Of a stretch of DNA of 64,000 bases, positions 34,256 through 54,651 are shown piece after piece. A program made the position numbers and the translations under genes. The DNA lies in assembly GCA_030606285.1 (NCBI GenBank), contig JAUWGS010000001.1:246572-310571 (forward strand), in the 5' to 3' direction. How positions within the stretch are numbered: the stretch's first letter is position 1; each line of letters opens with the position of its first letter. This DNA comes from Planctomycetales bacterium (GTDB lineage Bacteria > 4484-113). The notes under the pieces are model-generated. The model ran no database searches and was not told the origin of the DNA. It saw only the letters and a program-made list of their open reading frames with translations.

Positions 34256-37200
34256 CTACCCCCCAATCGTCGCAACGCCATCGGTCACCGTAATCGTCGT
34301 CGGCAGCCACCAGGAAGCGCCGCTGCTGAATAGGTCGGCGCCGGAGTTGTGCTGCGAAACCGAGCCGCTGAAATACTGCGTCTGCTCGTATTCCGTGCCC
34401 GGATTGACAATCACGCGAAGCTGGCAACCCACCACGCGCGGAGGTATCGGCGGGTCGGCGTCCGGGTCAGCTTGGTCATCAGTGTAGTAGTTCACGCCGA
34501 TTTCATACGTACCTTCCTCAAACAGGCTGGTTTCCGCATCGGGCGTGCACGTGAAGTTCTCCGGTCCGTAACCTTCCATGTTATCCACGTCCAGGTTGCC
34601 CGAGTTGATACCCTTATGTCCGTAGTAGCTCACGTCGCCGCTTGGGTCGCGAGCGTAGAGGTCAATATCGCTGCCGCCACCCATGTTCCACGTTAGCGTC
34701 ACCCGGAAGATTAGCTCGCGCGTAAACTCCACCTCCATCGGCGCGCTGTAGGTCGTTCCCAGCGCATTGGTCGCCTTTATCTGCATCACGTTCAAGCCCG
34801 GCACCAGCGCGACCTTCTTGTCGAAGTTGCCGCTGACATCAACCGAGAATATCTCCTCACTGCCGTTGTGCATCACGAGGATTTCCGGCCCGTCGAGGTT
34901 CAGCACCTGACCTGCGATGTGGTAGATGCCGTTGGTCTCGTCGGTCTCATTGTCAAACTGGCTCATCGTGATGGAGATATCGGGAACCTCCAGCACGTCG
35001 CCGGTGTAAGCTGGCAAAACGACGTTTACCGTTACCGGCACCAGCGCAATGACCGTCACTTTATTCGTCGTTGAAAGGCCACGTGCCGAGAACGTTACTA
35101 CCTTCCAGCCCGTCGGGACGTTGGAAAGGACGTAGTAGCCACCTGGATTTGTGATGTCCGTAATGACACCTTCGTCTCCCTCCACCTGCACGTTCACGTT
35201 GGCGATTGGCTCGTCGTTGGTGTCACGCACCTGGCCGATTATTGCACCGTGGAACTCAAACGGATTGAAGATGAAGTCTATGTCGGTTGTATCGCCCGCA
35301 TCTATCTGCACGTCATTCAGATTCGTCGTGTCGCCGTTTTCGCTCACCAGCCAGAAGTCCCAGAGGCCGGGTGGCAGGTCGAGGTTGTCCAGGTTCAGGT
35401 CGAAGTCCAGCAAGTCCCAGGTAATCCACACGTCGCGGTCGGGATCGCCCGTATCGTTCATACCGATAACGATGCGCTCCGTACCCTCAGCATTGTTGTC
35501 CGGATTGTTGTCGTGCAGGTTCCCGACGTGCTCCTGGATGATGTCCGTCGGGCTGTCGGTGCCAAAAAATAGCTCCAGCCAGTCACCGGCGCAATCGGGC
35601 AATTTCTCCTTAATGGCATCGTCTATGTACCCCTTCACGTTGTCGGTAATCTCGTTCTTGATGCCCTGCACCGGGTCTTCATAAATCTCCTCGGCGCGCT
35701 CGACGAACTTGATGCCCTTCTCAGCCATGTCCATCCCTTCGCCGATACCGGGTATGGCGGTCTTCACCACCTCCTGGTAAAACTCCGCGCCCTTCTCCAG
35801 GGCTTCGGCACCTTCACGATGTGTGATGTCAATCGGCCGGAAGTTTTGGTCCGTCGCACGGTCGGCAAACCGGCTCTGAACCTCGTACTCCCCCATCCCC
35901 GAAGCATGGATCATATCGTTGTATATCGTGCTGCCCGCGGTGTCGAAGTCGCCGGTGTAGAGCTTGTCCCGGAACTCCGCTGCGCTGTAAGGAGTTCCAT
36001 CCGTCTGTCGCGGGAGCCGCGATACCGGAAGCACGTAGTCGTAGAACTGCTCCCAGTCCGAAGCCGAGTAATCCTGCGTGAGCTGCTGAATTTTCTCGCG
36101 CTGCCGCCCGCCGCTTCCGCCGAGGAAGCTGAAGAACCCCCACAGTTTGTTGAGCATGCTCCCCGCGCCGGACGTCTCTTTCAGGCTTGACGGCACGTGG
36201 GTGGGGAACAGCATCTCCGCTGCGACCTTCGTCGCTTCCTCCATCCCCAGCAGCTTATTCTGCAAAAACTCCAGTTCCAGCATCTCCTCGTAGCTAAGGT
36301 CGGTATCGCGGCTGAGAAGCTCGTCCGTGAACCCGTTACTCAACATCTCCATGTTGGTAAGCTGGTAGAGCGTGTTTACTGTGGAGAAGTAGGCGATTGT
36401 CTGCGCCGCCTCGAACGTGTTATCCGGAATCGGTGCAACTTCGCGCACGTCGCCGTCAATGTAGCTGAAGTTGATGCCACGGCTGTCGATGCCTTCTTCA
36501 CCCTGATCGTCAACCGAAACCACCGAGTATTCGGCACCAGCGATGCTGTCCTGGATGCTGTAGGTGGGATATATGCCGGGGCCGTTGTTCATTTCCCGGC
36601 GCATCAACGTTTCGTTGAGCTTCAGTCTTTCGCCAACACCAGTCAGGCGGTAGACGTTGTAGCCTGTGAGCACGTTGCCGTAATTGATGGCCAGGGGCGT
36701 GATATCAGCGATACCCACCGTGCCGCTGCCGTCGCCGTCCACGGGGCGCTCGTAATCGTCCTCGGTGCCGTCAGTCGTATCTTTGCCATAGTAGACCGCG
36801 ACAGGTGTTATGTCGGCGATACTCACGGTGCCGCTCAGATCGTAGTCGCCCGCATTGCGCTCTTCCCAGACAACCTCTATGACTCCACCGCCTATGTCGG
36901 TTACAGTCACAGGGACGATGCTGCGGGAAGTGCGCGGCGCGCGGCATGTCTCCTTGTCGACTGCTCGCACGAACGGCGTTGGCGAGAAGGTCACTGTGAA
37001 CAACTCGCCGCTGCCGCTGATTCCACCAGATTCCTGCGGTCGGATGCGGGCAAATCCGAGCACGACCTCGCCGGGCTCTTCGCTGATGGAAAATGCGATC
37101 GTGTCGTCCTGCGGCAGAAGCTCGCCGCGCTCCATATCGAGCGGTGTCATCTCGCTGGCGGGATAGCGCAGCAAGAAGTACGCGTGCTCGCAATCCGTAA

Positions 37201-37423
37201 GATCGCGGGCAATGACTCGTGCCGTCATCCCGTCAACGACAAGCTCGAACCGTCCGTCGTCGGGTACAGGTGTAAGCCCGTCCTCGCCCAGCGTCACCAG
37301 TTTGAGCGACTCCACATCAGCCGGTGCCGCAAGCTGCGGTGTCACCGAGCGCGAGCTTCCCCCACAAGCTGACAGCGCAAGCGCTGCTGTCAGCAGCAAT
37401 AGCAGAAAAACACAGCGTTTCAT
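34256..37423 (-). CDS. large modular surface lipoprotein (cohesin-like, dockerin-like EF-hand pair, carboxypeptidase-regulatory-like Ig, C-terminal YfaP/DUF2135-like)
   Basis: Lipobox LSAC; GDYDLSGTVSIADITP / DGDGSGTVGIADITP; IIGQVRD...PIANVNV; RVTLTW..DIDL..DPSG..LDVDN.EGYGPENF. Confidence 0.8.
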   Translation of the reverse strand: MKRCVFLLLLLTAALALSACGGSSRSVTPQLAAPADVESLKLVTLGEDGLTPVPDDGRFELVVDGMTARVIARDLTDCEHAYFLLRYPASEMTPLDMERGELLPQDDTIAFSISEEPGEVVLGFARIRPQESGGISGSGELFTVTFSPTPFVRAVDKETCRAPRTSRSIVPVTVTDIGGGVIEVVWEERNAGDYDLSGTVSIADITPVAVYYGKDTTDGTEDDYERPVDGDGSGTVGIADITPLAINYGNVLTGYNVYRLTGVGERLKLNETLMRREMNNGPGIYPTYSIQDSIAGAEYSVVSVDDQGEEGIDSRGINFSYIDGDVREVAPIPDNTFEAAQTIAYFSTVNTLYQLTNMEMLSNGFTDELLSRDTDLSYEEMLELEFLQNKLLGMEEATKVAAEMLFPTHVPSSLKETSGAGSMLNKLWGFFSFLGGSGGRQREKIQQLTQDYSASDWEQFYDYVLPVSRLPRQTDGTPYSAAEFRDKLYTGDFDTAGSTIYNDMIHASGMGEYEVQSRFADRATDQNFRPIDITHREGAEALEKGAEFYQEVVKTAIPGIGEGMDMAEKGIKFVERAEEIYEDPVQGIKNEITDNVKGYIDDAIKEKLPDCAGDWLELFFGTDSPTDIIQEHVGNLHDNNPDNNAEGTERIVIGMNDTGDPDRDVWITWDLLDFDLNLDNLDLPPGLWDFWLVSENGDTTNLNDVQIDAGDTTDIDFIFNPFEFHGAIIGQVRDTNDEPIANVNVQVEGDEGVITDITNPGGYYVLSNVPTGWKVVTFSARGLSTTNKVTVIALVPVTVNVVLPAYTGDVLEVPDISITMSQFDNETDETNGIYHIAGQVLNLDGPEILVMHNGSEEIFSVDVSGNFDKKVALVPGLNVMQIKATNALGTTYSAPMEVEFTRELIFRVTLTWNMGGGSDIDLYARDPSGDVSYYGHKGINSGNLDVDNMEGYGPENFTCTPDAETSLFEEGTYEIGVNYYTDDQADPDADPPIPPRVVGCQLRVIVNPGTEYEQTQYFSGSVSQHNSGADLFSSGASWWLPTTITVTDGVATIGG

Positions 37424-37519
37424 GCCAAACACCTCCACACTGGAGTATCTGTATTGTATCTTATAGACAAGTTATACTCAAACCGCTGGGCCCGGTGCAG
37501 CGGGAGCATCGCCGGAGCG

Positions 37520-38026
37520 CTATAGCAGTTCGCCTTCTTGCACGATTGCCCGTATGCTCTCAATGACCTCATCTACAGCCGCTGTGACATCAGGATGCAT
37601 GTTTTCTGAAACGGTTAGATTGTCCGCAATCTCAACAGTGAATATGCGTATGCCCCGGTCGTCGGGCATATCAAGGCCGATAGTGCGGCCGAACTCCACT
37701 GCTGACTTGAAGCCGATGCCATGGCTTGTGAGCAGTCTTGACGTTGATTCCAGATCATCCATGCCGATCTCGCGGACAGTTCCAACAGCGTACTCACCGG
37801 TCATGATGGAATCAACGACTATCACTCCGTCAAAGCCCGCAAGCTTTTCTGTGAACTCGAAGCCGGCCTCTGTAGCGACATCCATAACGATCTCAACACC
37901 TTCAGGAGTGCGGGGAGGATTCTTCTGCAGCTCTTCAATCACAACCAGGCCTACCCGGTCGTCCGAGAGCACCGGGTTGCCCACGCCGAGTATCATTAAC
38001 CTTCTCATTGAATCCTTTTTGGCCAT
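37520..38026 (-). CDS. hydrogenase maturation protease
   Basis: ILGVGNPVLSDDRVG, VVDSI, TSHG. Confidence 0.92.
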   Translation of the reverse strand: MAKKDSMRRLMILGVGNPVLSDDRVGLVVIEELQKNPPRTPEGVEIVMDVATEAGFEFTEKLAGFDGVIVVDSIMTGEYAVGTVREIGMDDLESTSRLLTSHGIGFKSAVEFGRTIGLDMPDDRGIRIFTVEIADNLTVSENMHPDVTAAVDEVIESIRAIVQEGELL

Positions 38027-38070
38027 CCTTCCCGTCTAGAATACCACGCTCAATCCTGCCGTCCACGTAT

Positions 38071-38102
38071 AAGAAAGAGGGAGAGACTTACCCTCCCTCT
38101 TC
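38071..38102 (-). terminator. rho-independent terminator after mvhA
   Basis: Minus-strand AAGAGGGAG...CTCCCTCTT stem followed by TCTT. Confidence 0.6.
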
Positions 38103-38138
38103 GATCATCGTTCAAACAAAAGCCGGTGGTGCGCTACT

Positions 38139-39608
38139 TCACTCCCGGCGTATGCTGTCCAGGAGGTTACCCTCCTTATCGTACAGGCGCACTTCGAGTG
38201 GCATTTGCCCCGGCAATGAATGCGTCGCGCAGGCAAAGCACGGGTCGTATGCCCTGAACGCCATCTCAACCATGTTCAGCATCGGTTCGGTAACCTCCGC
38301 TCCGGCTTTAATGACCCCCTGCGCCGCCTTCTTAATCGACATACAAATTGCACCGTTGTTGTTTGTGGTGCCGACGATCAGATTCGCCTTCTGCACAATT
38401 CCCTTCTCGTCAGTAATGTAGTGATGCGTGAGTGTGCCGCGCGGGGCTTCAACGATGCCCACGCCTTCGGTCGGTTTCTCCGTCGGGATAACGCGGTAGT
38501 CTGGACCCGTGATATCGGGATCCTGTGCCAGCTCCAGGAAGCGCTCAGCTGCATACATTATCTCAATAACGCGCGCCCAGTGGGTAGCAAGCGTGGCGTT
38601 CACCGGCTTACCGCCGAGCGTGTCGTAGAAGCGCTCATATTGCTCCTGTGCCAGCGGGGTGGCCATCCCGTCCGCTACGTTCAGGCGTGACAGCGGGGTT
38701 GCGCGGTAAATCCCTGAATCCTGACCATCCACCAGGCCCTTCCAGCCAATGGACTTGATGTACGGGAACTTGAGGTAGGACCATGGCAGGACACACTCCT
38801 CTACAACATCGAGGTAATCCTTGGGTTCGTACTTAACGATTTCCTTACCCTCGGTATCGGTGACTCTTACCTTGCCATCGTAGAAGTTTATGTGGTTATT
38901 CTCATCAACCATCCCCATGTTGTGGCACGTGAGCACATAGGGATCGGAAAGGATGAGATCCACATACTCCTTTTTAGCGAGCACGAAGTCATCCACTACT
39001 TTGAGTGTGAACTTCGCGAACTCAAGCTTGTGCTTCGCAATCTCCAGGATGCGATCGTGATCTTCCTTGTCTGTGAGACCCTTGCTCATTCCGCCGGGGA
39101 GCATGTTGACCGGAATCACCGGCTTCCCGCCCAGAATCTTCGCAACTTCGTGACACTCAATGCGCGTGCGAATAACTTCCTTGCCAATTTCGACGCCCAC
39201 TTTGTGAATCACGCCGAGGATATTGCGAACCGCGGGGTCAGCATCCGGTCCCATCACGAAGTCGGGGCCGCCCAGAGCGTAGAAATGCGTCGTATGGTCG
39301 CCCAGCATGAAGGCGCTGTACTGCAACTCACGCAGTTTCCTGGCGGTTGGCGGAAGCTCCACATGATAGACCGCATCGCCGGCTTTGGCCGATGCTGTAA
39401 GGTGAGCCTCCGGACAGACACCGCAGATTCGGCTCGTTATGCGCGGCATCTCCTCCACTGGCCGGCCTTCGGCGAACTTCTCGAAGCCGCGTAGCTCCGG
39501 TACCTGGAAAAAGACGTTATCCACGCTTCCGTCGTCATTGAGGAAAATCTCTATTTTCCCATGGCCTTCAAGGCGTGTAATCGGGTCGATGGTTATTCGC
39601 TTGGTCAT
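38139..39608 (-). CDS. mvhA: [NiFe] hydrogenase large subunit, group 3c-like
   Basis: TRLEGHG, RICGVC (L1), EAPRGTL.H, RAYDPCFACATH (L2) plus cleavable C-tail. Confidence 0.93.
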   Translation of the reverse strand: MTKRITIDPITRLEGHGKIEIFLNDDGSVDNVFFQVPELRGFEKFAEGRPVEEMPRITSRICGVCPEAHLTASAKAGDAVYHVELPPTARKLRELQYSAFMLGDHTTHFYALGGPDFVMGPDADPAVRNILGVIHKVGVEIGKEVIRTRIECHEVAKILGGKPVIPVNMLPGGMSKGLTDKEDHDRILEIAKHKLEFAKFTLKVVDDFVLAKKEYVDLILSDPYVLTCHNMGMVDENNHINFYDGKVRVTDTEGKEIVKYEPKDYLDVVEECVLPWSYLKFPYIKSIGWKGLVDGQDSGIYRATPLSRLNVADGMATPLAQEQYERFYDTLGGKPVNATLATHWARVIEIMYAAERFLELAQDPDITGPDYRVIPTEKPTEGVGIVEAPRGTLTHHYITDEKGIVQKANLIVGTTNNNGAICMSIKKAAQGVIKAGAEVTEPMLNMVEMAFRAYDPCFACATHSLPGQMPLEVRLYDKEGNLLDSIRRE

Positions 39609-40600
39609 TTCGTCTCCTTCTTAGCCCCAACAAGACGCCGCCTTACCAGATACGAATGTGACATGCTGAAGCGATAGAAAAGACCCGCTGGGTCAACGAT
39701 TTCATCAATGACGCGCTGGATCTCTTCCTCGTCTTCGCTCTCAAGAACCGAGCCAATGGCGGATATCATCTTGGCTCCCTGGTCGTAGACATCCGCGCAT
39801 GGACCGTAGCAGCCACGGCAGGGCATTCCGGCGTTAATACAGCGAGCCTCGCAGCCGCTGCGGGTCGCCGGTCCCATGCATATAATTCCCTGCTCCAGCA
39901 GGCATTGCTCGGGATCCGGCGCTACGTATTCATGCGGGCGTTTGAATCTTTTAATCTTCGTCTCTTTCCTCTCCCGGGGACACTCGTCGCACACGGACTT
40001 ATTGCCCGCCCCGATGACGCTACCGGTGGGAGGAAGTTCTCCCGATACAATCGCTTCAATAGCAGCCCATGTGGTATTCTCCGCCGGTGGGCAGCCCGGT
40101 ATGAAATAATCCACATCGACGATATCGGACAGCTTCCGCACTGTTTCCCAGAACTCCGGCAGGTAGAGTTCGTAGCCGTTCTCCGTATGTTTCGTCTTCG
40201 GCTCGATTCTGTCGGGATTCACCGTGCTCTGACTCTCATGGTAGGCGCGGTCAAATACCTCCTCCTTGCTGTAGAAGTTCGCAAGAGCAGGGATACCGCC
40301 TTCGTAGGAACAAGAACCGTAGGCTATGAGTATCTTGGACTTCTCGCGCAGAAGATGGGCGATTTCTTCGGCTTCCGAGTTGCGGATCGCGCCGTTGAAA
40401 AAAGTCACATCGATGTACTTGTCCGGATAGGCCTTCACATCCTTGTACTTGAAGTCTGCGATGCACGGCCATAAAACGATATCGGCAAGTTCATCAACAA
40501 TCAGAATCTTCTCGCCAATCTCCAGCATACTGATATCGCAGCCTCCACAGGAGGCAGCCCAGTAAACTCCGAGTTTCAGCTTTTCTTTAGGTTGTTCCAT
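39605..40600 (-). CDS. mvhG: [NiFe] hydrogenase small subunit
   Basis: ASCGGC, GSC, PGCPP, CDEC, CLL..G.ICMGP, CRGCYG. Confidence 0.92.
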   Translation of the reverse strand: MEQPKEKLKLGVYWAASCGGCDISMLEIGEKILIVDELADIVLWPCIADFKYKDVKAYPDKYIDVTFFNGAIRNSEAEEIAHLLREKSKILIAYGSCSYEGGIPALANFYSKEEVFDRAYHESQSTVNPDRIEPKTKHTENGYELYLPEFWETVRKLSDIVDVDYFIPGCPPAENTTWAAIEAIVSGELPPTGSVIGAGNKSVCDECPRERKETKIKRFKRPHEYVAPDPEQCLLEQGIICMGPATRSGCEARCINAGMPCRGCYGPCADVYDQGAKMISAIGSVLESEDEEEIQRVIDEIVDPAGLFYRFSMSHSYLVRRRLVGAKKETK

Positions 40601-40687
40601 AAAGAAAACTCCAGATGGTTACCATATCCGGTGCCCCGGCTCCCCGAAACCCGAGAAGGCCAGAAGCTTCGGGATCTACATCCATAA

Positions 40688-41164
40688 TCACTTCGGTTCG
40701 AAGTTCTTGCGCCAGTTGAGTGGACCGAGCTTACGAACCTTCTCCGTCATATCGGTGACAACCTTGGCGTACTTGTGGATCTCCCCGGCGGATATCCATT
40801 CGAGTCGCAGTCGTTCATCCTCCACGCCAAACTGCGAAAGCATCTTCTTGAGAAGCGAAATCCTCGCCACTGTCTTGTAGTTGCCGCTAATGTAATGGCA
40901 CTGTCCGGGATGGCACCCGCCTATGAGCACACCATCCGCGCCTTCTGCGAATGCTCGCATAACGAAAGATGGGTCCACTCGGCTCGAACACATTACACGG
41001 ATGATACTGACATTGGGCGGGTACTTAAGGCGACTTGTGCCAGCCATATCAGAAGCCGCGTACGTGCACCACCAGCATAAGAAGCCGATGATTTTTGGCT
41101 CGAAGGGAACGATCCCTTCAGCGGTGTTTGCCGGACTCTTTTCGGCAGCTGTTATATCAGCCAT
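40688..41164 (-). CDS. mvhD: MvhD [2Fe-2S] adaptor subunit
   Basis: FLCWWCTY, RVMCSSRV, GCHPGQCHY.SGN, EWISAGE. Confidence 0.93.
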   Translation of the reverse strand: MADITAAEKSPANTAEGIVPFEPKIIGFLCWWCTYAASDMAGTSRLKYPPNVSIIRVMCSSRVDPSFVMRAFAEGADGVLIGGCHPGQCHYISGNYKTVARISLLKKMLSQFGVEDERLRLEWISAGEIHKYAKVVTDMTEKVRKLGPLNWRKNFEPK

Positions 41165-41177
41165 AGATTCCACTCCT

Positions 41178-42968
41178 TCACGACATCAAGAGAGCAGCCA
41201 ATTCCGCCTCTATTTGAGCATCATCGAAGCCGCGCTGGGTAATGGCACCGCTTGGGCAGGCAGCAACACAGCATCCACAAGCCTTACAGAGCACATCATT
41301 GATGACGGAAATGTGCTTCTCCTCATCATAAGAAATAGCTCCAAACGGACACACAACCATGCAAGTCTTGCAGCCGGTGCATACTTCCTCGTCAACCACT
41401 GAAGTAATCGGTTCGAGGGCTACTTCACCCGCATCTATCAAGCTCATCGCAGCCGCAGCCGCGGCAGCACCTTGAGCCACGCTATCGGGAATGTCTTTGG
41501 GCCCCTGAGCACACCCGGCGATGAAAATCCCGTCTGATAGGGTGTCAACAGGTGCAAGCTTGGGATGCTTCTCCATAAAGAAGCCGTCAGCCTTGCTGGT
41601 TATCTTGAATACGCGGGCTATCTCCTCCGCATCCGCAGTCGGTTCAAGCCCTACAGATAGAATCACCATATCTACCGGTAGCTCGCGCGGCACACCGAGA
41701 AGGGTGTCCTCGCAGCGGACATACAGCTTCTTGCCCTCCGCGCGCTCTGCGGTGGCCAGCGTAGGCGCGCTGCTCACCTCCACACCCTTGCCACGGATGA
41801 AATGCACGCCTTCTTCAAGCAGCCGATTGTAAAACTCTTCATAACCGCTTCCGGGGCAACGCATATCAATGTACAGCTCGTAGATATCGGCGTCAGGGAT
41901 CTTCTCTCTGATTAGGTGCGCCATCTTCAGACTGTACATACAGCAGACGCGCGAGCAGTACTCGTTGAAGTTCTTGTCGCGGGAGCCGATACAGTGAAGG
42001 ATGGCAACAGACTTGGGCTCCGTACCGTCCTCCTTCACTAACGCGCCACCGGTCACGCCTGAGGCATGAGACATGTGCTCAAACTCAAGGGAAGTAATAA
42101 CGTTGTCCAATCTGCCATACCCGTACTGCTCCGCTCTCGCGGGATCGAAGGTCTTGAACCCGGTAGCAAGTATAATGCTGCCAACCTCCATCTCCTCGAA
42201 GGTGTCCTGCATCTCATAGTCTATCGCATCAGGCTCGCAAACCTTAGAGCAAATCCCGCATCCGCCGGTCTGCATATGGATGCAACTTTGAGCATCAATG
42301 ACCGGTATGCCGGGGATCGCCGCCGCGAACGGAATATGGATCGGTGTCGTCGGACCTAGCGCAAGTTCGGATACTACGTATTTCCGCCCGCGGATGTCCT
42401 CGACCTTTATGTGACCTGTCGGGCATACATAGGCGCATGCGCCGCAGGCAATGCAAGTCTCTGATTCCCCTTCGAAAGGCGTTGAGACGTAACGCTCGGT
42501 TCCCCGTTTCACAAACGTAAGCGCATTCGCGCCCACGACTTCCGCGCACACTCGCACGCATAGTCCGCAGTTGATGCATTGCTCCGAGGGCATCTCCTCA
42601 AAGCGGGTCGTATCCACACCGTACTCGTGCGCCAGTTTGCGCACGACATCAACCTGCGAGTGGCGTGCGAGCATCAGTTCCAGCAGCATCTTGCGGTGCT
42701 TGATGACCTCTTCGGAGCGTGTCTGAACGACTATCCCGTCCCTCACGTTGTAGGTGCAGGCGGGCACCATCCGCGTTTTCCCGTGCACCTCAACTTCCAC
42801 TGTGCATATTCGACAGGCGCCGTACGGCTTGACGAACTTCCAGTGGCATAGGGTCGGGATATCGATCAGCAGGCGCTCGGCAACTTGGAGTATCGTCTCG
42901 CCTTCTCGCGCCTCAGTCTCGATACCGTCGATGGTCAGCTTCAACAGTTTTTCACTGGTTTCTTCCAT
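41178..42968 (-). CDS. fusion of NuoG/HydA-like N-terminal Fe-S domains with the C-terminal half of HdrA
   Basis: IPTLC..GACRIC..PAC [2Fe-2S]; CINCGLCVRVC and CIACGACAYVCP; then IILATGF, HCIGSRD, YCSRVCC, YIDMR, HPKLAPV, AGCAQGPKDI and a C-terminal ferredoxin. Confidence 0.9.
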   Translation of the reverse strand: MEETSEKLLKLTIDGIETEAREGETILQVAERLLIDIPTLCHWKFVKPYGACRICTVEVEVHGKTRMVPACTYNVRDGIVVQTRSEEVIKHRKMLLELMLARHSQVDVVRKLAHEYGVDTTRFEEMPSEQCINCGLCVRVCAEVVGANALTFVKRGTERYVSTPFEGESETCIACGACAYVCPTGHIKVEDIRGRKYVVSELALGPTTPIHIPFAAAIPGIPVIDAQSCIHMQTGGCGICSKVCEPDAIDYEMQDTFEEMEVGSIILATGFKTFDPARAEQYGYGRLDNVITSLEFEHMSHASGVTGGALVKEDGTEPKSVAILHCIGSRDKNFNEYCSRVCCMYSLKMAHLIREKIPDADIYELYIDMRCPGSGYEEFYNRLLEEGVHFIRGKGVEVSSAPTLATAERAEGKKLYVRCEDTLLGVPRELPVDMVILSVGLEPTADAEEIARVFKITSKADGFFMEKHPKLAPVDTLSDGIFIAGCAQGPKDIPDSVAQGAAAAAAAMSLIDAGEVALEPITSVVDEEVCTGCKTCMVVCPFGAISYDEEKHISVINDVLCKACGCCVAACPSGAITQRGFDDAQIEAELAALLMS

Positions 42969-44882
42969 TTACCGCATCTCCGTCACGTTCTTGCGACAAT
43001 GTTCGGTCGTAACTGCTGGAGACTCCACTACTATGGCATCCTCCGGGCAAACCTCTTTGCACGCGCTGCACTTCTCGCACACAGCCACATCGATCTCACG
43101 CAGCAAGCCGTCCTTGCGTTTTTCATCAGGAACGGGCTGGATGGCCTCCACGGGGCACACCTTCTCACAGGCACCGCAACCGGTGCAACGTGCCGGATCA
43201 ACGTGGTACGAGATGAGCGCCCGGCAAACGCGCCCCGGGCATCTGTGCTCATTGATATGGGCCAGGTACTCGTCCTCGAAGTACCTGATGCTGGACAAAA
43301 CCGGATTCGGAGCCGATACCCCGAGACCGCACAGAGCGGATACGGCAATCGCGTCGCCGAACCTGGCAAGGCGGTCCATGTCCTCAGGCTTGCCCTTGCC
43401 TTCAGTAATCCGGTGCAGGATTCGGGACATGTGCATCAGCCCTTCCCGGCACGGCAGACACTTCCCGCAGCTTTCTTCAAGCAGGAAATCGGTAAAGTAC
43501 TTGGCGACGTCCACCACGCACGTGTCCTCGTCCATGACGATCATGCCGCCCGATCCCATCATCGAGCCGGCCTGAGTCAGCACGTCGAAGTCAACCGGCA
43601 GGTCGAGCGACGACGCGGGCAGGCAGCCACCTGACGGCCCGCCGGTCTGCACCGCTTTAAAGGCCTTGCCGCCCTTGATGCCGCCACCGATATCAAAGAC
43701 GATCTCCCTCAGCGTGATCCCCATCGGGACTTCGATGAGTCCCGTATTCTCCACCTTGCCCACGAGCGAGAATACCTTCGTCCCCGGGCTGTCCTCTGTG
43801 CCAATGCCGCGGAACCACTTCGCGCCCCGACTGATGATATGCGGCACATTCGCCCAGGTCTCAACGTTGTTGAGGTTCGTGGGTTCCTCGTGGTAACCCC
43901 GCTCGACAGAATGGATGTATTTCGCGCGCGGTTCACCGACCATTCCTTCAAGGCTGCGGAACAGCGCAGAAGACTCGCCGCATACAAACGCGCCACCACC
44001 GCGCGAGATTTTGATGTCGAAGTCCAATCCCGAGCCAAGGATGTTCTCCCCCAGGAAGCCGTACTCATGCGCCTGTTTCAACGCGTTGCTGAAGGCTTTT
44101 AACGCCCTTGGGTACTCGTTGCGTATGTAGATAAAGCCGTCGTCGCCGCCGATGGCCCAGGCGCCGATAACCATTCCTTCAATGACACTGTGGGGATTGC
44201 CCTCAAGAATGGACTCATCCATAAATGCGCCGGGGTCACCCTCATCGGCGTTGCAGATGATGTGACGGCGCTCGCCGGGTGCTTCGCGGCAGTTCTTCCA
44301 TTTGCGTCCCGCGTCAAAGCCACCGCCGCCGCGCCCGCGCAGCTTAGCGTCTGATATTTCCTTTAGCACAGCGTCAGGTGTCATTTCAAGCAGCGCTCTG
44401 CTGAGCGCGCCGTATCCACCGTATGCCAGGTAATCGTCGATGCTGTACGGGTCGATATGGCTGTTCAGCGCGAGCACAACCTTGCTTTGCTTCGCGTAAA
44501 ACGGGATCTCGTCCTCTTTTGCGAATACGTTGCCGTTGTCTCCGGGGTGGTAAAGCAGGCGGTCAATAACTTCGCCTTTCTTCAGCGAGCGCTCGACGAT
44601 TTCAGGCACGTCGTCCGACTTCACCCGCTGGTATACAACGTCCAGCGGCCGGACAACTACTAAAGGCCCAACTTCACAGAATCCGTGGCAGCCGCTCTTG
44701 ATAAACTTCACAGACTTGTCGCCGCCCAGCGCCTCTTCGAACGCTTCTGCCAGTTCCTTGGCTCCTATAGCGCAGCACGCGGTACCGTGGCAAAGGGACA
44801 CCACGAGCGGGAACTCGTCGAGCGAGCTCTTGCAGCGCTCCTGGAAGCGCTTCACCTGTTCAGCTGTCTGAAGCCTAGGCAT
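42969..44882 (-). CDS. NuoF/HydB-type NAD(P)H-binding flavoprotein with extra Fe-S domains
   Basis: N-terminal CHGTAC..GCHGFC, RGRGGGGF, NADEGDPGAFMD, GGPSGG, SCGKCLPCREG, C-terminal 2x[4Fe-4S]. Confidence 0.94.
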   Translation of the reverse strand: MPRLQTAEQVKRFQERCKSSLDEFPLVVSLCHGTACCAIGAKELAEAFEEALGGDKSVKFIKSGCHGFCEVGPLVVVRPLDVVYQRVKSDDVPEIVERSLKKGEVIDRLLYHPGDNGNVFAKEDEIPFYAKQSKVVLALNSHIDPYSIDDYLAYGGYGALSRALLEMTPDAVLKEISDAKLRGRGGGGFDAGRKWKNCREAPGERRHIICNADEGDPGAFMDESILEGNPHSVIEGMVIGAWAIGGDDGFIYIRNEYPRALKAFSNALKQAHEYGFLGENILGSGLDFDIKISRGGGAFVCGESSALFRSLEGMVGEPRAKYIHSVERGYHEEPTNLNNVETWANVPHIISRGAKWFRGIGTEDSPGTKVFSLVGKVENTGLIEVPMGITLREIVFDIGGGIKGGKAFKAVQTGGPSGGCLPASSLDLPVDFDVLTQAGSMMGSGGMIVMDEDTCVVDVAKYFTDFLLEESCGKCLPCREGLMHMSRILHRITEGKGKPEDMDRLARFGDAIAVSALCGLGVSAPNPVLSSIRYFEDEYLAHINEHRCPGRVCRALISYHVDPARCTGCGACEKVCPVEAIQPVPDEKRKDGLLREIDVAVCEKCSACKEVCPEDAIVVESPAVTTEHCRKNVTEMR

Positions 44883-45396
44883 TCGCGCCTTCTTCTTTAG
44901 CTGCTTCCCGCTTTAGCCGCTTAACAACGGCATTAGTGCGATTCGTGGTCATATTGCCCTTGTATTCTCCGTCGACAACGAGGATCGGGCCGATAGCGCA
45001 CGCTCCGAGGCAGTTCACCCTTTCTAGAGTGAACAGCCCGTCGTCAGTCGTTTTGCCGAACTGCAAACCGTGCTGCCGGGACATAGCGCCTGCGATCAGT
45101 TCCGCTCCTCGCACGTGGCAAGCGGTACCCATGCAGAGTTGAAGTATATGCTTACCCCGTGGAACCAGGCTGAACACGCGGTAGAACGTCGCAATATGGT
45201 AGATACGCGGCTTGCGGACGTTCAGCCGGCGGGAGATATAGTCCAGGGCTTCCGGCGGCAGCCAATTGTACTTCTCCTGAACAGCGAGCATGGCCGCTAT
45301 AAGATCCTCCGAGTCGACCACCCAATCCTTGAGTAGCTCCTCGACCTGCTGGTCGGTAACAGCAGTCTGCTCACTTCCACCCGCCAGTTCAACCAC
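44875..45396 (-). CDS. NuoE/HydC-type [2Fe-2S] subunit
   Basis: ATFY, CMGTACHVRG, CLGAC..GP. Confidence 0.93.
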   Translation of the reverse strand: MVELAGGSEQTAVTDQQVEELLKDWVVDSEDLIAAMLAVQEKYNWLPPEALDYISRRLNVRKPRIYHIATFYRVFSLVPRGKHILQLCMGTACHVRGAELIAGAMSRQHGLQFGKTTDDGLFTLERVNCLGACAIGPILVVDGEYKGNMTTNRTNAVVKRLKREAAKEEGANA

Positions 45397-45418
45397 TTCA
45401 GTTACGATTTATAACCTC

Positions 45419-46336
45419 CTACACGCCTTTCGTGAGTTTCCTTTCCCGAACAAGCTTGTCCCCGAGCATTATCCTTCTATCCGATGGATAGAATGAAGAA
45501 GGACATACCGTCCAGCAGAGCTTGCATATCGTGCATTTGTCCACATCAACGTAGCGCGCTTTCTTCCGCACCTTCACCGTAAAGTTGCCCACATAGCCGC
45601 CGACTTCCTCAACTTCCGAGTAAGAAAGCAGTTCGATATTCGGATGCCTACCGACGGAGAAGATCTTCGGCGTGAGAATGCAGGATGCGCAGTCCAGCGT
45701 TGGGAAGGTCTTATCGAAGTCCGCCATGTGCCCGCCGATGGATGACTGCTTTTCCACCAGGTAGACCTTGTGCCCGCCGTCGGCTATGCGCAGCGCGGCT
45801 TCGATACCTGCTATACCACCGCCGACAATCATCGTATTCGGATTGACCGGCACCTTCTTTGGCTCCAAAGGCTTCTGGAAAGCGACTCTGGCGACTGCAG
45901 CCTTGAGAATCTTCTTAGCCTTCTCCAGGGCAGCTTTCTTATCCACCGTCACCCACGAAACATGTTCGCGGATATTCGCCATTTGCATGAGGTACTCATT
46001 CAATCCGCTGGTTTTGCTGGCCGCGCGATATGTGGGTTCGTGAAGTCTAGGTGAGCAAGCTGCAACCACGATTCGCGAAATATCATTTTCCTCTACGCTC
46101 TTGGTTATCTGGTTCTGACCCGGGCTTGAGCAGAAAAACTTGTTGTCTTCTGCAACCACAACCCCGGGTAAAGACCTCGCGTACTCAAGAAGCGCAGGCA
46201 TGCTAATAACTCCAGCTATGTTGGCTCCACAGTGGCAGATGTATACGCCTACCCGTACTTTCTCCAGCTGCTGCCGGATAAGCTCTTCTTCAGTGAAGGA
46301 CATCTTGTTTTTGCCGTTATCGCTTATTTCGTCCAT
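45419..46336 (-). CDS. hdrA: N-terminal half of heterodisulfide reductase subunit A
   Basis: GVYICHCG.NI, AACSPRLHE, NIREH, GGGIAG, DKTFPTLDCASCILTP; ends after ARYVDVDKCTICKLCWTVCP. Confidence 0.92.
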   Translation of the reverse strand: MDEISDNGKNKMSFTEEELIRQQLEKVRVGVYICHCGANIAGVISMPALLEYARSLPGVVVAEDNKFFCSSPGQNQITKSVEENDISRIVVAACSPRLHEPTYRAASKTSGLNEYLMQMANIREHVSWVTVDKKAALEKAKKILKAAVARVAFQKPLEPKKVPVNPNTMIVGGGIAGIEAALRIADGGHKVYLVEKQSSIGGHMADFDKTFPTLDCASCILTPKIFSVGRHPNIELLSYSEVEEVGGYVGNFTVKVRKKARYVDVDKCTICKLCWTVCPSSFYPSDRRIMLGDKLVRERKLTKGV

Positions 46337-46351
46337 ATTCGGCTCCTGTAG

Positions 46352-47221
46352 TTATGCATACCGAGAGACCAGCTTGTCCGCAGAGACGAGCTCAAGCCCA
46401 AATCCCAGCTTTTCCTTCGGAATACCGAAGGCAAGCCCCATCAACTGAGTGAAGTAGACGATGGGGATGGTGTAGTCTCCCCCGAGATACTGGTTAACCT
46501 CGGGCTGGTAGAAATCAAGATTCATGTGGCACAGAGGGCACGCCACGGCAATGCAGTCAGCGCCGTTATACTTGGCCTCTCTGAGCAGCCTGGCAACCAC
46601 TGGTATGGTCTTGCTGGATTCAGTGTTGGTGACCATTCCCCCGCAGCACTTGGCTGTCAGAGGATAATCCACAACCTCCGCTCCCAGCGATCGGGTGATG
46701 CGATCCAGAATTACCGGCCTTTCCTCGGAGTCGAATCCCCCGAAAGGGCGCGTGAGCATGCAGCCGTGGTAGGCCGCCACCTTCAAGCCATTCAGCGGCT
46801 TCGTGACTCGCTTTTCAACTTCATCCAGCCCAACAGTGTTGACCAGAACATCAACGAGATGCCGGATCCTCAGTCCACCGTCATAGTCCAGTCCTGCGGC
46901 CTGAAGGCCCTGGCGGATCAGATCCGCGAACTCAGGATTCGTCTGGAAGTACTCGTTGGTCTTATACAGGGTGATGTAGCAGGCCGGGCAAACGGTGACC
47001 ATCTGGTCAGCGCCCTCCCGGCGTGCCAGCGCTAGATTCCTCGCGCTGTTCCCGTGGGAAACCAGCTCGTGAACCGACATATACGTTGTTGCACCGCAGC
47101 AGTTCCAGTCCGGAAGCTCCTTGAGCTCCACATCCAATTCCTTGCATACGGCTCTCGCGGAGGTGTCGTACATCTTCGCGGTGTATTCAACAGAACAACC
47201 CGGGTAATAAAGCAGTTCCAT
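46352..47221 (-). CDS. hdrB: heterodisulfide reductase subunit B
   Basis: Two CCG domains (YYPGC, NCCG, CPAC; YHGC, CCGG, CPLC). Confidence 0.93.
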   Translation of the reverse strand: MELLYYPGCSVEYTAKMYDTSARAVCKELDVELKELPDWNCCGATTYMSVHELVSHGNSARNLALARREGADQMVTVCPACYITLYKTNEYFQTNPEFADLIRQGLQAAGLDYDGGLRIRHLVDVLVNTVGLDEVEKRVTKPLNGLKVAAYHGCMLTRPFGGFDSEERPVILDRITRSLGAEVVDYPLTAKCCGGMVTNTESSKTIPVVARLLREAKYNGADCIAVACPLCHMNLDFYQPEVNQYLGGDYTIPIVYFTQLMGLAFGIPKEKLGFGLELVSADKLVSRYA

Positions 47222-47853
47222 TAGCGCGCTTCCTCCTTGGCCATTTTCTCTTCCTCGAGCCGCTCAAGGGTCTCGCGTATCTTCCGCATTTCGTCGAGCC
47301 CCGCAACTTTCCTGCCGCTAATGGGCATCGGCAGGCGACCCCTGAAGAACATTTTGGCTCCTCGCCAAGCGTTCTTTATCGCATCGCCCCATCTTCCAGC
47401 CAGGTAGAACCTCGCCATGAGTTCCGATTCGTTATTTCTGCCGAGCCGGTTGGTGATGTTGATGAAGATGCGAGCCATTGCCGCTGCCCGAGTGCTGGGA
47501 GATGTATACCCGTACTTGATGCCCAGCCGCTTCAGCTCGTACATTATGTCCGTTATCTTTATTTGCTGCGGGCACCGCACGGTGCAGATGTAGCAGGACG
47601 TGCACATCCACGCCGTGTTGCTGTAAAGCACCCGATCCAGCATTCCCGCCCTCAGGGCCGCAAAGATTTCCCGCGGTGAGTAGTCCATGGCGTATGCCGT
47701 GGGACAGGAGGCGCTGCACGTGCCGCACTGGATACAAAGGTCGATTTTACGTCCGTCAGGCAGCGCGTAAACGTGCGACAGGAAGATGTCTGAGAGCTCC
47801 TCTGGCGAGAGTTTTTGTACCCGCGTCTTGGTCCTTAATTCGGATCGCGGCAT
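47221..47853 (-). CDS. hdrC: heterodisulfide reductase subunit C
   Basis: CIQCGTCSASCP and WMCTSCYICTVRCP. Confidence 0.93.
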   Translation of the reverse strand: MPRSELRTKTRVQKLSPEELSDIFLSHVYALPDGRKIDLCIQCGTCSASCPTAYAMDYSPREIFAALRAGMLDRVLYSNTAWMCTSCYICTVRCPQQIKITDIMYELKRLGIKYGYTSPSTRAAAMARIFINITNRLGRNNESELMARFYLAGRWGDAIKNAWRGAKMFFRGRLPMPISGRKVAGLDEMRKIRETLERLEEEKMAKEEAR

Positions 47854-47865
47854 ATCGTATCTCCT

Positions 47866-48339
47866 TCAGTCCGACCTGTTCACGCTATATAAGTCGGTCA
47901 GACTCATAAACAAGCCCCGGAGATTCTCCAGGTCCTTGAGTGCACGATAAGTTTCGCAGCAACGGCACTGTTCGCATGCAGCCCGGTTTTGAAGGCTGAC
48001 CTTGCACCAGCACGGTTCACCCGCACTTCCCAGCTTTTCGCACCGCTCCCTGTCTTCAGGTGGGCAATGCTTGAACATCCAGCACGGCAGACACGCCGCT
48101 AGGAACTTGAGCGCCGCCAGGCTTAGGCGGTGATCCTTCTGTAGACTGCGCAGGTGCCGCGCATTTTCGATGTCCACATTGGAGAAAATCCGCCGGTTCG
48201 TATCGGTAAGGTGGGGAATCAGCAACCCGCTCGACTCGTATTCCCGTAGAACACTGATGGGAACGCCCGATTTCTGCGAAGCGATACCCATCGTGTACAC
48301 GGAATCGTATGGCGAGTTCTCTTTCTTCCGGTCTGCCAC
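47866..48339 (-). CDS. MerR-family transcriptional regulator with Cys-rich (two-CW-like) C-terminus
   Basis: YTMGIAS..VLREYE..GLL.P....RRIFS; PCW..C..C..PCW..C..CRCC; start re-called to GTG. Confidence 0.82.
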   Translation of the reverse strand: MADRKKENSPYDSVYTMGIASQKSGVPISVLREYESSGLLIPHLTDTNRRIFSNVDIENARHLRSLQKDHRLSLAALKFLAACLPCWMFKHCPPEDRERCEKLGSAGEPCWCKVSLQNRAACEQCRCCETYRALKDLENLRGLFMSLTDLYSVNRSD

Positions 48340-48670
48340 GGGTCCTGCAACCCTCTCGTCCCCAAAAACCCGCAAATGTAGTTTATCCCGCGAGAGAGCT
48401 GTGAAAACAATAACATATAGCTTATGATTCGTCAAGCATCACAAGCACATTTCGTCGCGTAAGCAGGACCGGAACACGGGTCTCGGATGTCCCTGGTGTG
48501 TGCTCTCTTTCAAGGTTCGCGTGTTAAGCCGTGCAGTATAGCAGTTATCTACCACAGTGTGAAGAGCGTCACTAAGTCCTTTTACTGAAATATAATAAGC
48601 GTGAGCATATACGTTCACATCTGCAAATGGTCAAAAGACAGCTTAAGCAGCCCCTTTCTCGGTCATACAG

Positions 48671-50519: not shown

Positions 50520-51776
50520 CTACACCGAGAAATTCACCACATATGCCGGCTTGGGCACTGTGTACAGGCGCACCTCGAACTCGCTATTGCCGCGCAAGAT
50601 GTTCAGGACGTATTCCTCGCCGATTTCGCCGAGCAGAACGTCCACGCGGAAGTCCTCGGGCGTCGGTGACAGCTGTGCGTTGACGCTCAGTATCTGGTCA
50701 CCATCTTGCAAACCGGCCAGCGCTGCGGGCGATTCCTTCTCGACAGCCAGCGCCCACAGGCCTTCAGGCCGCGTCAGCTCGCGAAATTCGATGAAACTCT
50801 CAACGTCGGTGATGTTCGGCGGGAAGATGCAGTGAATTCCCAGCCACGGAATGTCGTGCCGCTTGTGCTCCAGCACCTCCACCACGAAGTTCTTGGCGAA
50901 GTTGATGGGCACGGCCCAGTTGGTCTGCTGCGCAACGGGAAGCGACCTTCCCCATGTATTGATGGCGATGACCTCGCCGTGGCGGTTGAAGAGCGGGCCG
51001 CCGGAATTGCCCTGGTTGATCGGCACCTGGATGCGGAATACGTACGGCAGGTTCATCGAATAGCTCAGCCCGAACTGCCCTCCCCCGCGATAACGGTTGT
51101 AGAAGTGCTGCATCACTTCAAACGTTAGATCGGTGTCGCGGCCGGAAACCACGCGCATCGTCGCCGTCTGGCGCAGCCCCCAGTATTCCAGCGGATCGCT
51201 GCGGTCAATGTTGAAGCCCTCCATCGCGCCGGGGCTGCCCATCGCCAGCGCCACTTCGCCTGCCCGCACTCTGTCGGAATCTCCCAGCGGCACCGGAAAC
51301 AGACTGTCCGGATCGGGCTCATCGAGTTTAAGCAACGCGGTATCATAATAAGGCGCAACAGCGACCAGGGTTGCCCGCGCGCTGCTCCCGTCCGAAAAGA
51401 TGATCTGCACCACCGAAGACTTTCCTGCGACATGAGCGTTGGTGATTATGTGGCCTTCCTTGTCGATGACGAAACCGGAACCGAGGATTGAGACCTCAGC
51501 CGCAGCAACGGACACGATCTCTATCGGCTGCACAACGACCACGCCGCGCTTGACCTTCTCTATAAGCTCGGGTACGTTGATGGGGATCTCGCGCAGAATC
51601 TGTTGAGCTTCGTTTTCGCTGACGGTCTGCCATTCGTCACCTGCAACAAGGCCTTCGTTTTCCGATGACTGCAATGCGGGGGCTTGCGCGAAACCCGATT
51701 GCGTAAGGGCTGCTGAGGAACCGACTGCCGCCACAAGCAGCACCGTTGCCAGAACAGCCGTTAATCTGACGACCAT
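50520..51776 (-). CDS. HtrA-like trypsin serine protease with PDZ domain (copy 1)
   Basis: Signal peptide, GSGFVI, TNAHV, YYDTALL, GNSGGP, PWLGI, SPAALAGL. Confidence 0.9.
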   Translation of the reverse strand: MVVRLTAVLATVLLVAAVGSSAALTQSGFAQAPALQSSENEGLVAGDEWQTVSENEAQQILREIPINVPELIEKVKRGVVVVQPIEIVSVAAAEVSILGSGFVIDKEGHIITNAHVAGKSSVVQIIFSDGSSARATLVAVAPYYDTALLKLDEPDPDSLFPVPLGDSDRVRAGEVALAMGSPGAMEGFNIDRSDPLEYWGLRQTATMRVVSGRDTDLTFEVMQHFYNRYRGGGQFGLSYSMNLPYVFRIQVPINQGNSGGPLFNRHGEVIAINTWGRSLPVAQQTNWAVPINFAKNFVVEVLEHKRHDIPWLGIHCIFPPNITDVESFIEFRELTRPEGLWALAVEKESPAALAGLQDGDQILSVNAQLSPTPEDFRVDVLLGEIGEEYVLNILRGNSEFEVRLYTVPKPAYVVNFSV

Positions 51777-51879
51777 AATTCGCCTCCTGATACGTGTTGG
51801 TTTTGACTGAGCGAACGTGCTCCCACAAATCAGTTAGACTGAAGTTCGTCAGAATCGTTCCGCTGCTATGGTGTGCGGG

Positions 51880-53076: not shown

Positions 53077-53234
53077 GTCCTCCTCTTGAGGTTCAGTTTC
53101 AAAGCTCTGTCAATGAGCGTTAACGAAAACACTGGACTCCCCGCCCTGCGAGAATCCGTCCGGACATAGGCGTGCTCGTCGCTGTGTTTCCCGCTAGATT
53201 CTACCTTTAACTGCGACCTGTTACAATCTCACTG

Positions 53235-53303
53235 ATGGCAAAGGGCGTATTGGCGATTCTTATCAGCTCTCTAGCGGCTGCTGCGCTCCATCTAGTCAGT
53301 TAG
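53235..53303 (+). pseudogene. 22-codon remnant of the 5' end of gene 54652
   Basis: MAKGVLAILISSLAAAALHLVS* versus MAKGVLAILVCSLAAAAF. Confidence 0.8.
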
Positions 53304-53345
53304 ACTGAAGTTCGTCAGAATCTTTCCGCCGCTCCAGCGAGTCCG

Positions 53346-54539: not shown

Positions 54540-54651
54540 GTCCTCCTTAATGAGGTTCGGTTTCAGAGTTCCTACAATGAGCGTCACTGGAGAAACTCCA
54601 GTTTGCCCCGCTAGATTCTACCTTTAACTGCGACCTGTTACAATCTCACTG

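Follow-up and report, generated by a model that had tools for sequence, protein, structure and literature searches.

The window analysed here is a stretch of 64,000 nucleotides from an uncultured Planctomycetales bacterium of sediment (GCA_030606285.1, contig JAUWGS010000001.1, positions 246,572 to 310,571), and all coordinates refer to it unless a locus is named. Its minus strand carries, at 37520-48435, an operon of 11 closely spaced genes in the order merR, hdrC, hdrB, hdrA-N, nuoE, nuoF, nuoG'::hdrA-C, mvhD, mvhG, mvhA and a maturation protease gene, as identified by open reading frame (ORF) calls, Pfam and NCBIfam (Table 1). From hdrC to mvhD the genes are separated by 0-22 nt or overlap, and all frames are open. 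Hdr-linked [NiFe] hydrogenases are among the commonest hydrogenases of uncultured anaerobes. The operon of the window differs from the methanogen type in that HdrA is encoded in two pieces, with a NuoE-NuoF module between them and a NuoG-like domain, here called BfuA', fused to the second piece. This split HdrA with its Bfu module is real and widespread, and it appears to be new relative to the described Mvh-Hdr and Bfu enzymes.

A two-gene HdrA in an mvh-hdr operon

A preliminary description of this DNA had recognised an N-terminal half of HdrA with the GGGIAG motif, broken within the inserted ferredoxin domain after its first cysteine (Cys) motif, and a C-terminal half with IHIPF, CIHMQTGGCGICSKVCEP and ATGF behind a NuoG/HydA-type prefix. 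It had placed nuoE and nuoF between the halves, with hdrC and hdrB upstream and mvhD, mvhG and mvhA downstream. ORF calls of 305 and 596 amino acids (aa) together with the Pfam and NCBIfam assignments bear this arrangement out, and both halves match when aligned to the solved HdrA 8rvu_a. Residues 21-281 of HdrA-N align with residues 6-267 of 8rvu_a (E 2e-97), and the 596-aa protein follows 8rvu_a from residue 275 to 653 over its own residues 203-594 (E 1e-112), starting just before Cys motif 2. Only about seven residues of the reference are missing between the halves, so the break is clean. The inserted ferredoxin domain has two Cys motifs and is cut between them; HdrA-N stops 24 residues past CTICKLCWTVCP, which is motif 1 (CxxCxxCxxxCP).

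The ligands expected of an intact HdrA are distributed over the two proteins. HdrA-N carries C34, C36, C69, C94 and GGGIAG, which align with 8rvu_a and are invariant in 20/20 sequences, and its Cys motif 1 (C268, C271, C274, C278 and P279) is invariant in 20/20 split-type HdrA-N (alignment A2). Cys motif 2 of HdrA-C (C229, C237, C240 and C244) contains a five-residue insertion and is invariant in 12/12 sequences (alignment A1). Both ferredoxin Cys motifs are present, but on separate chains. HdrA-C also supplies the remainder of the flavin adenine dinucleotide (FAD) fold, the cluster motif CSRVCCMY and, at its C-terminus, a 2x[4Fe-4S] domain. Its K348 pairs with K409 of 5odc_A by manual count on the alignment, and we take this lysine of the CCMYxxK motif to act close to the flavin N5. 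The two genes lie 2.4 kb apart, and the single-chain HdrA2 model, whose cut-off is 1100 bits, gives their products 367 and 445 bits. By sequence, HdrA consists of two polypeptides, which between them restore its FAD-binding fold and both clusters of the inserted ferredoxin. The split would thereby amount to a natural two-piece flavoprotein, its FAD site and two Fe-S clusters being assembled from separate chains.

Misassembly was a doubt raised in the preliminary description. Contigs of other runs bridge the junctions between the four genes (Table 1), and the split was not refuted. The bridging covers the junctions singly, no one contig spanning all 6.7 kb, and X2 and X4 share their study with the sample that is the likely source. 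The 'joints' listed in the contig mapping have sides all shorter than 30 letters at 90% likeness and were taken as cross-matches from other organisms.

Table 1. Genes and domains of the operon, and contigs that bridge the gene junctions at the HdrA split.
Feature	Position	Strand	Basis
MerR-family regulator, head of the cluster	47866..48435	-	Pfam MerR_1, E 6.7e-12
HdrC, 2x[4Fe-4S]	47221..47853	-	Pfam Fer4_8 and others
HdrB, two CCG domains (disulfide-reducing site)	46352..47221	-	Pfam CCG, two stretches, E 2e-27
HdrA-N, 305 aa	45419..46336	-	N-terminal [4Fe-4S] domain, GGGIAG, ferredoxin Cys motif 1
NuoE-like BfuC, thioredoxin-like [2Fe-2S]	44875..45396	-	Pfam PF01257, E 8e-44
NuoF-like BfuB, 637 aa	42969..44882	-	Pfam; full-length alignment with WorB/HydB
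Fused protein BfuA' (NuoG')::HdrA-C, 596 aa	41178..42968	-	ORF call
BfuA' domain, residues 1 to ~202 of the 596-aa protein	42363..42968	-	Pfam Fer2_4, Fer4_7
HdrA-C, residues ~203-596 of the 596-aa protein	41178..42362	-	Alignment with solved HdrA
MvhD, [2Fe-2S] adaptor	40688..41173	-	Pfam FlpD, E 2.9e-54
MvhG, [NiFe] hydrogenase small subunit	39605..40600	-	Pfam Oxidored_q6; NCBIfam VhuG, E 7.5e-70
MvhA, [NiFe] hydrogenase large subunit	38139..39608	-	NCBIfam VhuA, E 2.7e-116; RICGVC and DPCFAC ligand motifs
Hydrogenase maturation protease	37520..38026	-	TIGR00072, 82.3 bits (cut-off 47.45)
hdrA-N/nuoE junction	44971-45737		X2 record 6, 0 differences
hdrA-N/nuoE junction	45260-45570		X3 record 13 (other study), 3 differences
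nuoE/nuoF junction			X2 record 5 and X3 record 12, 0 and 9 differences
nuoF/nuoG' junction			X4 record 21, 10 differences

The NuoE-NuoF-BfuA' module and its attachment to HdrA

NuoF consists of an N-terminal thioredoxin-like [2Fe-2S] domain, a flavin mononucleotide (FMN)/NADH core, an SLBB domain, a [4Fe-4S] domain and a C-terminal 2x[4Fe-4S] ferredoxin domain (Pfam PF01512, PF10531 and PF10589, with Fer4 at 560-617 and PF01257 at 27-98). It aligns end to end with the B subunits of bifurcating enzymes (9mqx_B WorB, E 4.7e-227; 7t2r_B NiFe-HydB, E 1.2e-213; 8a6t_B HydB), while NuoF/Nqo1 types from complex I match over the core only and with about half the score. The closest solved relatives of NuoE are HydC/WorC/NfnC subunits. 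BfuA' (residues 8-192) matches the N-termini of HydA/NuoG/WorA-type proteins, the best match being 9mqx_A WorA (E 6e-36). It comprises a [2Fe-2S] domain and one 2x[4Fe-4S] domain (Fer2_4, Fer4_7), lacks the His-ligated cluster, there being no Cys at residues 86-128, and lacks the C-terminal BfuA domain, which fits Type 2 (A1 and A2, without A3 and A5). WorA is itself a Type-2 BfuA with clusters A1, A2 and A4 only (PMC12318220; Schut et al., 2022). In domain content the three proteins correspond to the BfuA, BfuB and BfuC families as described by Schut et al. (2022).

NuoE, NuoF and the NuoG' domain make up a complete Type-2 BfuABC module, the A subunit of which is a domain of HdrA. The BfuA domain occupies the inter-motif loop of the inserted ferredoxin, and BfuB and BfuC are encoded in the gap. 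The two flavin sites proposed in the preliminary description are recognisable, as the FAD motifs of HdrA are present and the alignment of NuoF with HydB/WorB includes the FMN/NADH motifs.

The view that all these parts belong to one complex, also put forward in that description, gained support from natural fusions and in silico co-folding. BfuA' is covalently joined to HdrA-C in every split locus, and HdrA-N is fused to NuoE in four loci (L015, by Pfam, L018, L027 and L029). P0008, a protein of 925 aa that is 84% identical to that of the window, comprises HdrA-N, BfuA' and HdrA-C as one chain; such single-chain forms (P0008, P0126 and P0127, 925-931 aa) occur on six contigs in all. Within the family of the window the parts stay together as their order shifts, with nuoEF between hdrB and hdrA in genome G003 and before hdrC in G006 and G008. 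HdrA-N and the C-part were predicted to co-fold with an interface score (ipSAE) of 0.86 (median of three runs) compared to 0.01 for the best of three controls; in the calibration, the mark was reached by 58/80 solved complexes and 2/110 mismatched pairs. Contact agreement between runs was at least 97% and the predicted local distance difference test (pLDDT) of the partner at least 88. The closest contacts of the predicted interface set the GGGIAG strand and helix of HdrA-N against the C-part's ATGF strand and AQGAAAA helix, and the interface also takes in both Cys motifs and the BfuA' ferredoxin domain. Since this predicted interface joins the FAD strands and both Cys motifs, the FAD site and two clusters are predicted to be shared between polypeptides, in line with the original proposal.

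The remaining genes encode the expected partners of an HdrA. HdrB aligns with 8rvu_b over residues 1-284 (E 3.9e-48), with the cysteines of its two CCG motifs in register. HdrC matches NCBIfam CoB_CoM_SS_C (E 5.8e-25), under the curated cut-off. The large subunit with its [NiFe] ligands, the small subunit, MvhD and the adjoining hdr genes identify the hydrogenase as group 3c (MvhADG). An ORF homologous to the maturation protease follows mvhA in 10/29 split loci, and a MerR homologue likewise heads the related operon of genome G005 (L093).

Distribution and variants of the split locus

A homologue search with the 596-aa protein gave 8000 scored matches. Among the best 120 of these, all but the shorter fragments P0012 and P0013 carry the [2Fe-2S] Pfam family, and those that carry it are about 580-612 aa long and 55-95% identical to the query. 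The fusion is present in 8/41 related genomes. Loci were examined for the best 80 of 584 confirmed matches, on contigs of one genome per species. The gene order that the preliminary description proposed to search for, hdrA-N, nuoE, nuoF and nuoG'::hdrA-C on one contig, occurs in 28 of these 80 loci, usually flanked by hdrCB and mvhDGA, and so recurs beyond chance. Because the loci were picked by similarity to the query, 28/80 is not a prevalence figure. Three more loci (L016, L023 and L026) have nuoF immediately upstream without hdrA-N on the locus, and 42 HdrA copies in the 80 loci are canonical. Judged by record titles, the 28 split loci span more than ten phyla, including Armatimonadota, Aminicenantes, Zixibacteria, Ignavibacteriota, Calditrichota, Planctomycetota, Verrucomicrobiota, Acidobacteriota, Chloroflexota, Thermodesulfobacteriota and Myxococcota, and one is labelled as an archaeon. 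A quick maximum-likelihood tree was built from 95 HdrA-C segments; L089-L092 were dropped as duplicate genomes, and the tree omits L033, whose truncated HdrA-C match failed the length filter, as well as L083, since that genome is the one of the window and is represented by the row 'window'. Split, canonical and GltD-insert forms are interleaved on this tree and its backbone is without resolution.

The loop that receives BfuA' holds other modules in other genomes. In G003, G005, L054 and L073 the same loop contains a GltD/NfnB-like module (Fer4_20 and Pyr_redox_2), and unsplit GltD-insert HdrA proteins of 1112-1185 aa adjoin mvhDGA (L093:9391-12948, L094:10287-13769, L054:5918-9253, L073:7691-11098). 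In G003 (L094) nuoEF lies immediately upstream of this HdrA, which has no BfuA domain, and G006 and G008 have a degenerate GltD-like insert in the same loop with nuoEF upstream of hdrC. The insert of two HdrA proteins of 999 aa (L095:7273-10272, L096:6385-9384) lacks the second dinucleotide-binding region (Pfam finds Fer4_20 only) and nuoEF precedes hdrC at these loci, and in L035 the loop holds just an extra 2x[4Fe-4S] domain. By Pfam, the Fer4_20 and NAD(P)H/FAD (GltD/NfnB-like) domains are absent from both HdrA proteins of the window. The inter-motif loop of the HdrA ferredoxin domain is an insertion hot spot.

Many split loci additionally carry a regulatory cassette of DRTGG, HATPase, HydA-like and PHP genes, either in the gap from hdrA-N to nuoE or in that from nuoF to nuoG'. 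Three of these families are each found in 11/29 split loci, and the HydA-like one in 8/29. The in-break cassette of L002 (3484-7327) reads DRTGG, HATPase, HydA-like (Fe_hyd_lg_C with FeS), DRTGG, PHP and HATPase, and that of L015 (7032-9983) reads DRTGG, CBS and PHP-HATPase. We presume a resemblance to the sensory cassettes of HydABC operons. The operon of the window is a minimal form without the cassette.

Several further observations concern HdrA genes of these genomes. In three Anaerolineae split loci an in-frame TGA takes the place of the second Cys in DCSxC of HdrA, and homology runs on past it (L022:2218-2220, L028:3207-3209, L025:2090-2092). The TGA is probably read as selenocysteine in a split HdrA-N. 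The window's own genome has a second Hdr locus outside the window (G000:C29:164831-171653) with several HdrA-like frames, two of which contain one in-frame TGA and are probably selenocysteine-containing HdrA paralogues. An Anaerolineales contig (L057:539-9114) carries three tandem canonical hdrA genes, two of them nearly identical. On a Fidelibacterota chromosome (L020:10001-11485) HdrA-C is preceded solely by the 2x[4Fe-4S] part of BfuA', and no match to hdrA-N, hdrBC or nuoEF was found within 10 kb upstream of it.

Relation to known enzymes and candidate electron path

The operon shares all six subunit types and the order hdrCB-A...mvhDGA with MvhAGD-HdrABC of methanogens (5ODC, 8RVU). It differs in having HdrA as two chains, a BfuA domain in the ferredoxin loop and an added BfuBC, and its disulfide, in a bacterial host, is presumably something other than CoM-S-S-CoB. 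The preliminary description had treated Hdr-type and HydBC/Bfu-type enzymes as known only in separate systems. This needs correction, as class II benzoyl-CoA reductase (BCRII) couples both, and no other characterised enzyme is known to do so (Schut et al., 2022; Appel et al., 2026 preprint). In the cryo-electron microscopy study of BCRII, the HydBC-type BamGHI feeds the HdrA-like BamE by way of its C-terminal ferredoxin domain and of BamF, which is MvhD-like (Appel et al., 2026 preprint). The Bam[(BC)2DEFGHI]2 complex of Geobacter metallireducens is similar to the putative enzyme of the window in joining a HydBC/Bfu-type to an HdrA-type module and in having MvhD-like and HdrBC-like subunits. 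In BCRII, however, BamI feeds the input of BamE and the inserted ferredoxin leads to tungsten subunits, whereas in the window the hydrogenase is the input and Bfu lies in the output domain. BamE is moreover a fused HdrA dimer, compared to one HdrA unit in the window, and the HdrB of the window retains both CCG motifs, which BamD does not. Pfam detected no BamBC and no aldehyde-oxidoreductase-type gene in or beside the operon.

Three other enzymes share single features. WorABCSL of Acetomicrobium mobile (9MQX; PMC12318220) supplies the best solved match for BfuA' and NuoF and has a BfuA with A1, A2 and A4 only; its third-substrate module is a tungsten oxidoreductase instead of Mvh-Hdr, and its BfuA is a free subunit instead of a domain inside HdrA. 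NiFe-HydABCSL of A. mobile (7T2R) likewise couples a [NiFe] hydrogenase to BfuABC, without an Hdr module or disulfide site and with BfuA as a separate subunit that has the A3 cluster. HdrL of Desulfobacterium autotrophicum is an HdrA/glutamate-synthase fusion with an NAD(P)H-linked flavin module and an MvhD neighbour (PMC2702500). It resembles the window in the NAD(P)H-linked addition to HdrA, and the loop insert of G003 and G005 corresponds to the HdrL type; the insert of the window is, in contrast, BfuA' with separate BfuBC, not GltD/NfnB-like, and the gene is split. Schut et al. (2022) list FeFe, NiFe, Nfn, Fdh, F420, Wor, Bam, Codh, Por, Mbh, Nuo and Rub classes of Bfu enzymes with 17 clades unassigned, and their main text names no Mvh-Hdr class. 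A full-text literature search, which covered the main text of Schut et al. (2022), found no split hdrA with nuoEF in the break and no Mvh-Hdr-Bfu class. Prior biochemical characterisation of this architecture, which would remove its novelty, was not found in the literature searched.

The operon probably encodes one soluble enzyme, MvhAGD-Hdr(A-N + A-C)BC-BfuBC, with the Bfu module in series behind the bifurcating FAD of HdrA. The inserted ferredoxin domain is the low-potential output of HdrA-type enzymes (Appel et al., 2026 preprint), and the module placed in this exit would therefore stand in series behind the FAD. The hydrogenase holds the normal input of HdrA, and therefore the wiring would be unlike that of BCRII, where Bfu feeds the input. 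On this anatomy, H2 would be oxidised at MvhA and electrons would pass via MvhG and MvhD to the FAD of HdrA. The high-potential electron would go via HdrC to the disulfide site of HdrB, and the low-potential electron would cross the shared clusters to BfuA' and then reach the FMN/FeS core of BfuBC, where NAD+ and ferredoxin would be reduced. In a sizeable fraction of the Hdr-linked [NiFe] hydrogenases compared here, from more than ten phyla, a second bifurcating module would be built into the electron exit of the flavoprotein. If the series wiring is true, the hydrogenase would chain FAD-based Hdr and FMN/FeS-based Bfu bifurcation in the order opposite to BCRII, and the H2 thresholds and ferredoxin supply of sediment microbes would be modelled differently.

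It is conceivable, although we rather doubt it, that the two modules form a two-stage cascade, in which the HdrA FAD splits H2 electrons between the disulfide and a stream at about -400 mV, and Bfu splits this stream again between NADH and ferredoxin. We estimated H2 thresholds by our own arithmetic with a Nernst slope of 29.6 mV per decade and potentials of -414 mV for H2, -140 mV for the heterodisulfide, about -280 mV for NADH and about -500 mV for ferredoxin (Schut et al., 2022). By this estimate, ferredoxin reduction by a canonical Mvh-Hdr would require an H2 potential of -320 mV or lower (about 70 Pa), and a cascade of 4 H2 + 2 disulfide + NAD+ + ferredoxin would balance at about -265 mV (about 1 Pa). 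The price of the lower threshold would be twice the disulfide. Such a cascade, if true, would let sediment bacteria gain low-potential reductant from trace H2.

Several points weigh against a single enzyme wired in series. All members are known from genes alone, and the sequence cannot tell whether the Bfu core bifurcates in this setting. The nuoEF genes of G003, G006 and G008 accompany a GltD-insert HdrA without the BfuA' domain, so BfuBC may connect differently or act alone there. All-against-all ORF clustering of the 29 split loci found no conserved candidate for a disulfide carrier; recurrence was limited to the known parts together with the protease and the DRTGG/HATPase/PHP/HydA-like cassette, and many clusters were antisense shadow ORFs. 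Because HdrA structures are already solved, the co-folding result shows likeness to HdrA and may reflect the memory of the model, and the calibration holds roughly, self-made alignments having been used. The HdrA-C tree does not point to a single origin of the split, as the canonical label needs at least four changes across its well-supported branches.

Among the alternatives, the best supported keeps the same complex and takes NuoEF(G') as a plain NAD(H) diaphorase like HoxEFU, with NAD+ replacing free ferredoxin and no second bifurcation. We regard this as improbable, but it deserves weight because NuoE scores on HoxE and BfuA' on HoxU models, both under the curated cut-offs, and because the same loop in the sister genomes G003, G005, L054 and L073 holds a single-substrate NAD(P)H module of HdrL type, which suggests that the general theme is coupling to pyridine nucleotides. 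NuoF argues the other way, as its N-terminal [2Fe-2S] and C-terminal 2x[4Fe-4S] ferredoxin-binding domains mark bifurcating BfuB/HydB and its best matches are all bifurcating.

A somewhat less probable alternative reverses the same wiring in the cell, so that NADH and reduced ferredoxin would be confurcated in Bfu, thiol oxidised at HdrB and H2 evolved. In characterised enzymes both kinds of module, Bfu and Hdr, work reversibly (Schut et al., 2022; Appel et al., 2026), the Mvh-Hdr of a fermenting archaeon has been interpreted as H2-evolving (Imachi et al.), and the HydABC-type sensory or regulatory cassette of many loci would suit this direction. However, by our arithmetic and with a disulfide of -140 mV, H2 would have to stay under about 1 Pa for the reverse reaction to be exergonic, and Greening et al. 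(2024) state that every characterised group 3c hydrogenase oxidises H2 under cellular conditions.

Quite unlikely is a pair of independent enzymes, Mvh-Hdr and Bfu, that share an operon, with NuoG' as an extra cluster-bearing extension of HdrA. A shared operon alone is no proof of a complex and the position of nuoEF varies in the operons of related genomes, but the covalent BfuA'::HdrA-C link in all split loci, the four HdrA-N::NuoE fusions and the role of BfuA domains, which are the docking and entry subunit for BfuBC in every solved Bfu enzyme (PMC12318220), speak for the single enzyme wired in series. An assembly error or a decaying pseudogene in what is a metagenome bin of 36 contigs can be dismissed almost entirely, given junctions bridged by contigs from other samples and one other study, the same split in 28 assemblies independent of one another, with Cys ligands that do not vary on either side of the break, and open frames throughout the operon.

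Outside the operon, a gene for a 1060-aa CarboxypepD_reg protein (34256-37438, minus strand) lies immediately downstream of the maturation protease gene, and three HtrA/DegP-like trypsin-PDZ protease genes stand in a row at 50520-54587 on the same strand.

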